From Eledone cirrhosa (Eukaryota), in assembly GCA_964016885.1 (NCBI GenBank), contig OZ024752.1, positions 41,478,001 to 41,542,000 on the forward strand: a DNA stretch of 64,000 nucleotides. The letters are read 5' to 3'. Each line of letters starts with the position of its first letter. Position 1 is the stretch's first letter. The notes beneath the pieces were generated by a model. The model was not told where the DNA came from. It searched no databases and saw nothing but the letters and a program-made list of their open reading frames with translations. Positions 43,112 to 43,560 of the stretch are shown one piece after another. The translations under genes were made by a program, and so were the position numbers.

Positions 43112-43560
43112 ATTAGAATTGGAGCTCTGAAATAGCAATATATATAATTAAAATATAATTAAAAGCATTTTGAAAAAATGCTTTTAATTAAGCATAAAGT
43201 GTATTGCAAAATACATTATATATACATCCATATATATATTGCTATTTCAGAGCTCCAATTCTAATTTTTAATTTCTGCCTGACCAACAACCGCTCTGCAT
43301 AATCAGCTCCTGATTATTTACTAGATTTCTATAAGAATATAACATCAATGATCTCAGTAGACAGGTGGGGTAGTTGGCCTTGATAAGCTTCAACCAAAGC
43401 GAAACAAGTCTTGTCGGCTTATCTCCCCTGTTTGCTGAGATCAAAGTGAGTGAATTTGTCACTACATTAAAACAATAGTTTACGGTCTTCAAAATGCTTT
43501 TAATTAAGCATAAAGTGTATTGCAAAATACATTATATATACATCCATATATATATATATA
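43112..43560 (+). mobile_element. HHR-bearing ~316-bp repeat unit (candidate non-LTR retrozyme / Penelope-like pseudo-LTR) with 5' inverted fragments
   Basis: About 65 bp at 43175 recur at 43491 (period 316); 43112-43145 is the reverse complement of ~43232-43265; flanked by (TA)n. Confidence 0.6.
43349..43443 (+). ncRNA. Type I hammerhead ribozyme (extended stem I, U3-A8 core variant)
   Basis: gcc-TTGATAA(43380-86)-gctt[caacca]aagc-GAAA-caag t cttg-TC(cleavage after C43415)-ggc; stem I extends to tgatctcagtagacagg / cctgtttgctgagatca. Confidence 0.8.

Follow-up and report, generated by a model that had tools for sequence, protein, structure and literature searches.

Non-LTR retrozymes of metazoans are known from coral, mussel, and axolotl as tandem units of 150 to 450 bp with a GC content below 50% (Cervera and de la Pena 2020, PMC7229834). 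Published support for the mobilization of animal retrozymes by Penelope-like elements (PLEs) rests on co-occurrence and on terminal-repeat homology (PMC7229834 and 10.64898/2026.07.22.740005). The latter source, a 2026 preprint on vertebrates, argues from co-occurrence and terminal-repeat (pLTR) homology that retrozyme-type elements are non-autonomous PLE derivatives, and it reports that eight of nine frog retrozyme dimers tested did not cleave; its available main text contains no match for “tail,” “mollus,” or “cephalop.” PLE insertions comprise partial tandems, an inverted 5'-truncated copy, and a one-sided tail of 30 to 40 bp, and they show a bias toward (TA)n and microsatellite targets (PMC8557442). 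With AT-rich DNA in vitro, a PLE protein cuts and then extends each of the two strands, and two internal start sites on the RNA delimit the tail (PMC11167929). A U3-A8 core is a known natural variant of PLE hammerheads (Schistosoma mansoni Cercyon, PMC4209133).

The window, that is, the whole stretch of 64,000 nucleotides (64 kb) analyzed here, contains a locus that can be compared with both systems. It very probably represents a single insertion of a non-LTR retrozyme, a young and dispersed non-coding repeat of 316 bp that carries a type I hammerhead motif; the enzyme of an autonomous PLE, probably of the Neptune type, likely copied this repeat into (TA)n sites (Table 1). With the metazoan non-LTR retrozymes described in PMC7229834, the element has in common non-coding tandem units of less than 50% GC, one type I hammerhead per unit, and an occurrence as dimers to multimers. 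It differs from them in the U3-A8 core and long stem I of the window subfamily, in a stem III of 4 to 5 palindromic pairs, and in two-armed, one-tailed insertions, which are not among the features described in the available text of that paper. With PLEs of the Neptune/Nematis type (PMC8557442) and the Anolis Poseidon element PAc (PMC11167929), it shares partial tandems, an inverted 5'-truncated arm, a one-sided tail, targets that are AT-rich or (TA)n, and a hammerhead upstream of the ends. However, the window unit has no open reading frame (ORF); the units abut at 316 bp, and no ORF for reverse transcriptase (RT) and GIY-YIG lies between the repeats. Its hammerhead is extended rather than minimal, and at the nucleotide level the unit does not resemble any of the PLE termini that were sampled from this genome. 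Judged by the sequence features that can be tested, the unit is a metazoan non-LTR retrozyme and would work like one; the class is already known, and the window family appears by the same features to be a new member.

Table 1. Features of the insertion and of its hammerhead motif (window positions)
Feature	Position	Strand	Evidence
(TA)n target flank, left	43100..43111	.	Sequence
Inverted arm, outer piece: 26-bp tail (unit 26 to 1, 43112-43137) and adjacent AT run; one element end	43112..43146	-	BLAST of unit; inverted repeat
Inverted arm, inner piece (unit 267 to 249)	43156..43174	-	BLAST, inverted repeat
Direct arm: partial unit truncated at its 5' side (unit 252-316), same sequence as 43491-43555	43175..43239	+	BLAST, direct repeat
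Internal tail copy, with 23-nt motif (2-fold-degenerate pattern) conserved across subfamilies	43240..43265	+	6,811 exact matches; control, 0
Full 316-bp unit, ending in AT run (second element end)	43240..43555	+	BLAST, alignment
Extended type I hammerhead ribozyme motif, stems I to III, predicted	43349..43443	+	Sequence, folding, sub-threshold Rfam match, covariation
Stem I strands	43349-43379 / 43416-43443	+	Sequence
Core positions 3 to 9, U3-U-G-A-U-A8-A9, with U3-A8 replacing C3-G8	43380..43386	+	Sequence
Stem-loop II, 4-bp stem and 6-nt loop	43387..43400	+	Both-side changes at all 4 pairs
GAAA	43401-43404	+	Sequence
Palindromic stem III (43404-43414) and predicted cleavage nucleotide C17 (43415)	43404..43415	+	Compensated 43407/43411 switch
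(TA)n target flank, right, followed by unrelated LINE fragment	43556..43561	.	Sequence

The unit has a GC content of 34%, and the window copy differs from the family majority at 2 positions. Its coding capacity is minimal (the longest ATG-started frame in 43112-43560 has 28 codons), and we saw no sign of a host function. In the 3.0-Gb genome of the window, a search yielded 1,061 candidates, of which 40 were scored and gave 109 matches; the best copies are 96 to 100% identical. Exact genomic matches number 333 for a 40-nt core (control, 0), 1,090 for C17 and the following 31 nt, and 583 and 210 for two other palindromic stem III variants. The window copy is thus one of a young, genome-wide repeat family with more than 1,000 near-identical copies. 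The first-pass annotation had proposed a non-LTR retrozyme-type unit and suggested a search of the genome for multimeric copies and for the preservation of core and stems. Both were borne out: tandem copies with a 316-bp period, one type I hammerhead per unit, and preserved core and stems were found, and the number of units at a locus ranges from 0.5 to about 10. The U3-A8 core is kept in older sister subfamilies of about 80 to 87% identity, other sister subfamilies at about 71 to 76% identity have the canonical C3-G8 core (771 pattern matches), and the ends of all subfamilies lie at the same two unit positions. All 30 loci returned for the 23-nt tail motif belong to the superfamily of the 316-bp unit. 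The unit and its variants also occur in contigs of four sequencing runs of unrecorded kind (X1, X2, X5, and X6), which are no evidence of RNA. We found no description of the family in the hammerhead, retrozyme, cephalopod, or Penelope literature; the supplements of PMC7229834 and of the preprint, or Repbase/Dfam, may list it. Two further arrays were noticed. (i) An older sister subfamily forms an array of about 20 units with repeated partial units at locus L101 (G000:C1:268924000-268933500). (ii) One of the stem III variants has 385 forward and 198 reverse matches, an excess of about 190 that hints at a long one-way array.

The hammerhead claimed in the first-pass annotation, with C3U and G8A in the core, stem II, GAAA, a palindromic stem III, and a GUC triplet ending at C43415, can be read directly in the sequence; the core nucleotides of a type I hammerhead and an NUH cleavage triplet are present. 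Stem I consists of 17 contiguous pairs including G-U, then 3 to 4 pairs, and, beyond an internal loop, 4 proximal pairs. When the 64-kb window was scanned with a degenerate pattern of the core, there was one match, against none in 100 shuffles. Searching the window against Rfam gave nothing at the gathering level; the motif aligns over the full length of the core, stem II, and loop II with Hammerhead_HH9 (RF02275), but it is not a member of that family, whose gathering score is 52; the motif reaches 24.6 bits (E = 0.001). In the proposed check by Rfam and folding, the fold did better than shuffled sequences (z = -7.0 for a 103-nt region; 0 of 200 shuffles equally stable), whereas Rfam Hammerhead_1 had no match to the motif at E <= 10 and the predicted minimum-energy fold is not the catalytic one. 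At the sister loci L118, L128, and L079, Rfam at E <= 0.05 returned no hammerhead and only microsatellite-driven microRNA and snoRNA noise. Like the minimal hammerheads of Cercyon, the motif has a compensated U3-A8 change and a palindromic stem III, which is thought to favor dimers (PMC4209133). It differs from those minimal motifs in PLE termini in that U3-A8 occurs here in a full-size motif, while sister subfamilies keep C3-G8.

Covariation was assessed in 25 hand-picked, aligned representatives across subfamilies. Of the cells in the proposed pairs, 92.5% are paired, against 82.8% when shuffled and 34 to 47% in slid controls. Changes on both sides are seen at 15 of 28 pairs, including all 4 of stem II, a count that overstates the independent events because the subfamilies are related. 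The 3-8 pair is C-G in 13 representatives, U-A in 12, and broken in none, and the core columns are otherwise invariant across the aligned motifs. Covariation thus supports stems I and II, including the 3-8 pair and distal stem I. For stem III, the evidence comes from within the young family, where the pair 43407/43411 is A-U in 172, U-A in 32, and unpaired in 10 of 214 units; the outer three pairs never vary. These compensated changes in the 3-8 pair, stem II, and stem III argue against a chance hammerhead-like motif. A pairing of GUUG in the stem I bulge with CAAC in loop II, also suggested at first pass, found no such backing, as Watson-Crick pairing was possible in 53.8% of cells against 53.7% when shuffled, with no compensatory change; the starts of loop II and of the stem I bulge are conserved. 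Among genomic copies, core changes (21/2,748) are not clearly rarer than changes elsewhere (573/57,324), which is expected under neutral decay but is not positive evidence. Purifying selection on the core within copies was rejected, since an apparent signal (1/1,224) came from loci chosen for near-exact matches and shrank in this wider set.

In a nearest-neighbor model, which takes no account of tertiary contacts, the catalytic fold of the monomer lies about 10 kcal/mol above an inactive fold in which the core is predicted to pair with the 5' strand of stem III, and for one natural dimer the model places a double hammerhead 5.75 kcal/mol higher than the minimum. The monomer is therefore predicted to fold mainly into an inactive form. 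The corresponding “off” pairing of positions 3 and 15.4 tracks the C3-G8/U3-A8 change and is possible in 165 of 185 distinct motifs; because it is lost in one abundant lineage, we treat it as a lead only.

The window copy consists of a TA run, an inverted arm that starts with the 26-bp tail, and 1.2 direct units that end in an AT run. The inverted repeat piece spans 43107-43146, unit positions of about 268 to 307 are missing from the inverted arm, and the inversion junction between the two arms is at 43174/43175. Both the direct repeat of 65 bp at a period of 316 bp and the inverted pieces at the 5' end, reported earlier, are present. The earlier description as a roughly 1.2-mer insertion holds for the direct units; the insertion as a whole is two-armed, with an inverted arm that carries the PLE tail. 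The internal tail copy likely represents the region between two reverse-transcription start sites, as we infer from the mechanism in PMC11167929. The window copy has one hammerhead; two consecutive hammerhead-bearing units, the preprint's criterion for “active” elements, are absent here and present at other loci of the family. With a single hammerhead, the copy could not release unit-length RNA on its own, contrary to the suggestion that it might be a source of circular RNA, whereas multimeric copies could.

The architecture was compared at 70 loci (71 clusters), which were chosen from best hits and clustered matches rather than at random. Fifty-eight of the 71 clusters are two-armed and head to head and 13 are one-armed, a fraction that is not genome-wide because the loci were chosen by match quality. 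Among the 58 two-armed clusters, 54 have a single arm with the tail, 3 have it on neither arm, and 1 on both; it is 26 bp long in 30 of 56 cases and 27 to 37 bp long in the rest. Most insertion ends abut TA runs, with flanks judged by eye. Both arms of an insertion share one haplotype: at ten lineage sites, picked after the data had been seen, the arms of one insertion differ in 34 of 1,325 comparisons, against 6,586 of 23,325 between loci. As the one-tailed, two-armed layout and the (TA)n ends are the published PLE signature, mobilization by a Penelope-like enzyme, as the first-pass annotation had supposed, is well supported.

From these observations, the following cycle may be proposed. Tandem arrays would be transcribed into multimeric RNA, and the hammerhead, probably dimeric through its palindromic stem III, would cut some transcripts to monomers, which may be ligated to circles. 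PLE protein would nick both strands of an AT-rich target, and reverse transcription would start on each strand, at two RNA sites about 26 to 33 nt apart that flank the conserved tail. On a template that is either circular or an uncut multimer, both cDNAs would extend past the ribozyme site and would be joined head to head, giving a two-armed insertion with the tail on one arm. The copies do read through the cleavage site. Among copies without C17, 3 of 24 break at the cleavage site and the rest have substitutions, small deletions, or breaks farther upstream, a test that misses any break by which a C is left in place by chance. Of 114 arm breakpoints, 3 are located at unit positions 170 to 180, against about 4 expected. 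Cleaved linear monomers as template would give 5' ends piled up at G43416. No such pile-up is seen, so that linear cleaved monomers are not supported as the main template and circles or uncut multimers are likely.

Whether circles take part at all is the point on which the strongest alternative turns. It keeps the same element and enzyme and lets uncut multimeric transcripts serve as the template, the hammerhead cutting rarely or late, and we rate its chances only a little short of even. PLE protein in vitro takes uncut RNA as its preferred, main substrate and inserts it independently of hammerhead cleavage (PMC11167929). Arrays with mixed unit variants in repeated blocks (L068, L069, and L170) are unlike the product of one monomer circle and fit multimeric templates; however, they may also have formed after insertion through unequal exchange, and near-uniform arrays such as L169 fit a circle as well as a multimer. 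Private variants occupy mirror ranks in the two arms in 17 of 22 cases against 12 expected, which is suggestive only, and the strand excess of the stem III variant, with its hint of a long one-way array, points the same way. Against a template without circles stand the circles reported for coral, mussel, and axolotl retrozymes (PMC7229834) and the compensatory change across subfamilies, which implies that the fold matters. A more elaborate variant of the circular cycle seems to us rather unlikely. According to it, a cephalopod retrozyme superfamily would be a circular RNA parasite with an inbuilt off-switch, in which the core of the monomer circle pairs with the 5' strand of stem III and cleavage is confined to multimers; a PLE dimer would copy the circle from two starts by rolling reverse transcription, and the tail motif of 23 nt would act as a portable signal that recruits PLEs without sequence match to its host element.

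PLEs in this genome have an RT, a C-x4-C-x2-C linker, and, at the C terminus, a GIY-YIG domain, and the copies sampled terminate with TA runs at two sites, which lie downstream of minimal hammerheads; several of these hammerheads are U3-A8. Together with the published start-site mechanism, these two ends suggest mobilization of the retrozyme in trans by an enzyme that would be of PLE type, probably Neptune; the element is likely a non-coding parasite of that enzyme. No autonomous PLE with terminal homology to the unit was found in 64 distinct regions, which were drawn from 150 scored GIY-YIG hits of 10,596 candidates; the sole hit was a sister copy that lies within the TA run terminating a PLE. 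Nor was any of the 30 tail-motif loci seen as a PLE terminal repeat. Two 33-bp matches (L064 and L218) were rejected as a PLE link because both are TA runs, and putative PLE-type fragments near several loci (query L055:6342-7307, no Pfam hit) were taken as coincidence, given their varied distance, strand, and identity.

The unit could instead be the solo terminal repeat (pLTR) of an unsampled autonomous PLE family rather than an independent non-autonomous element, which we consider quite improbable. Its layout is the same as that of truncated PLE copies, the 64 regions are a small part of the candidates, and in frogs 24 of 57 retrozyme families match known transposable elements, 21 of 22 of these being PLEs (10.64898/2026.07.22.740005). 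However, as many as about 10 units per locus follow one another head to tail, the period being exactly 316 bp and no ORF intervening, and the hammerhead is extended, in contrast to the minimal motifs of the PLEs sampled. Moreover, no adjoining RT-EN frame continuous with the unit was found at the loci checked by tblastn. Extremely improbable is a repeat of satellite or SINE-like nature that owes its spread to a LINE or to recombination at the DNA level and whose hammerhead-like motif is a relic or chance product. A young LINE 3' fragment adjoins the window copy and the Rfam score is under threshold, but flanks vary among the other 69 loci and are mostly TA runs, the compensated changes argue against chance, and the one-sided tail and fixed two-site ends are not known as LINE features.

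On the preferred reading, namely a non-LTR retrozyme mobilized by a PLE enzyme, hundreds of young insertions of the window family record the two-start-site signature of PLEs for a non-coding RNA of 316 nt, an unusually clear mechanistic PLE footprint for a retrozyme family. Within its superfamily, a single extended hammerhead occurs naturally with C3-G8 as well as with U3-A8. A small, defined substrate with a PLE footprint and natural core variants makes both the template question (circle versus uncut multimer) and the purpose of the ribozyme testable.

Several PLE families of this genome were noted in passing. A near-intact family with a 938-codon RT/GIY-YIG frame (L051:3809-6622, minus strand, with L052, L059, L183, and L266) has a minimal hammerhead of the U3-A8 kind and can end at either of two sites that are about 66 nt apart; the outer of these ends has only a 7-nt word in common with the retrozyme tail. 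Further families with minimal hammerhead-like motifs (L057, L064, L100, L054, and relatives) have tails of about 30 nt that end in TA runs, and some of the PLE motifs depart from the consensus core, e.g., the L057 family, in which GAAA is altered. Further hammerhead-like motifs, which have a canonical C3-G8 core and no relation to the unit, occur at L100:1473-1569, L061:7088 and 7599, L238, and L060:7485, one of them repeated at a spacing of about 510 bp; they likely represent further retrozyme or PLE families.

Directly downstream of the insertion, at 43562-43930 (plus strand), lies the 5'-truncated 3' end of an abundant young LINE with a short tandem tail, which we take to be RTE-like. It contains a 120-codon frame (43564-43926) with 99% genomic matches among 70,956 candidates, and an RT domain is found in a longer relative. 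A link between this fragment and the retrozyme was rejected because other retrozyme copies have other flanks, and the LINE is an independent insertion. Just upstream of the retrozyme, a short imperfect palindrome (43065-43092) presumably resembles a DNA-transposon terminal fragment, and a related tandem word is present at 21101-21149. Elsewhere in the window, three paralogous open frames of 458 to 549 codons on the minus strand (46768-48144, 53426-54958, and 60916-62565) contain tandem C2H2 zinc fingers in 84-bp repeats, clusters that agree with the cephalopod label of the first-pass annotation, and a 147-bp tandem array with related dispersed fragments of another repeat occupies 10820-12159 and 41587-41937.
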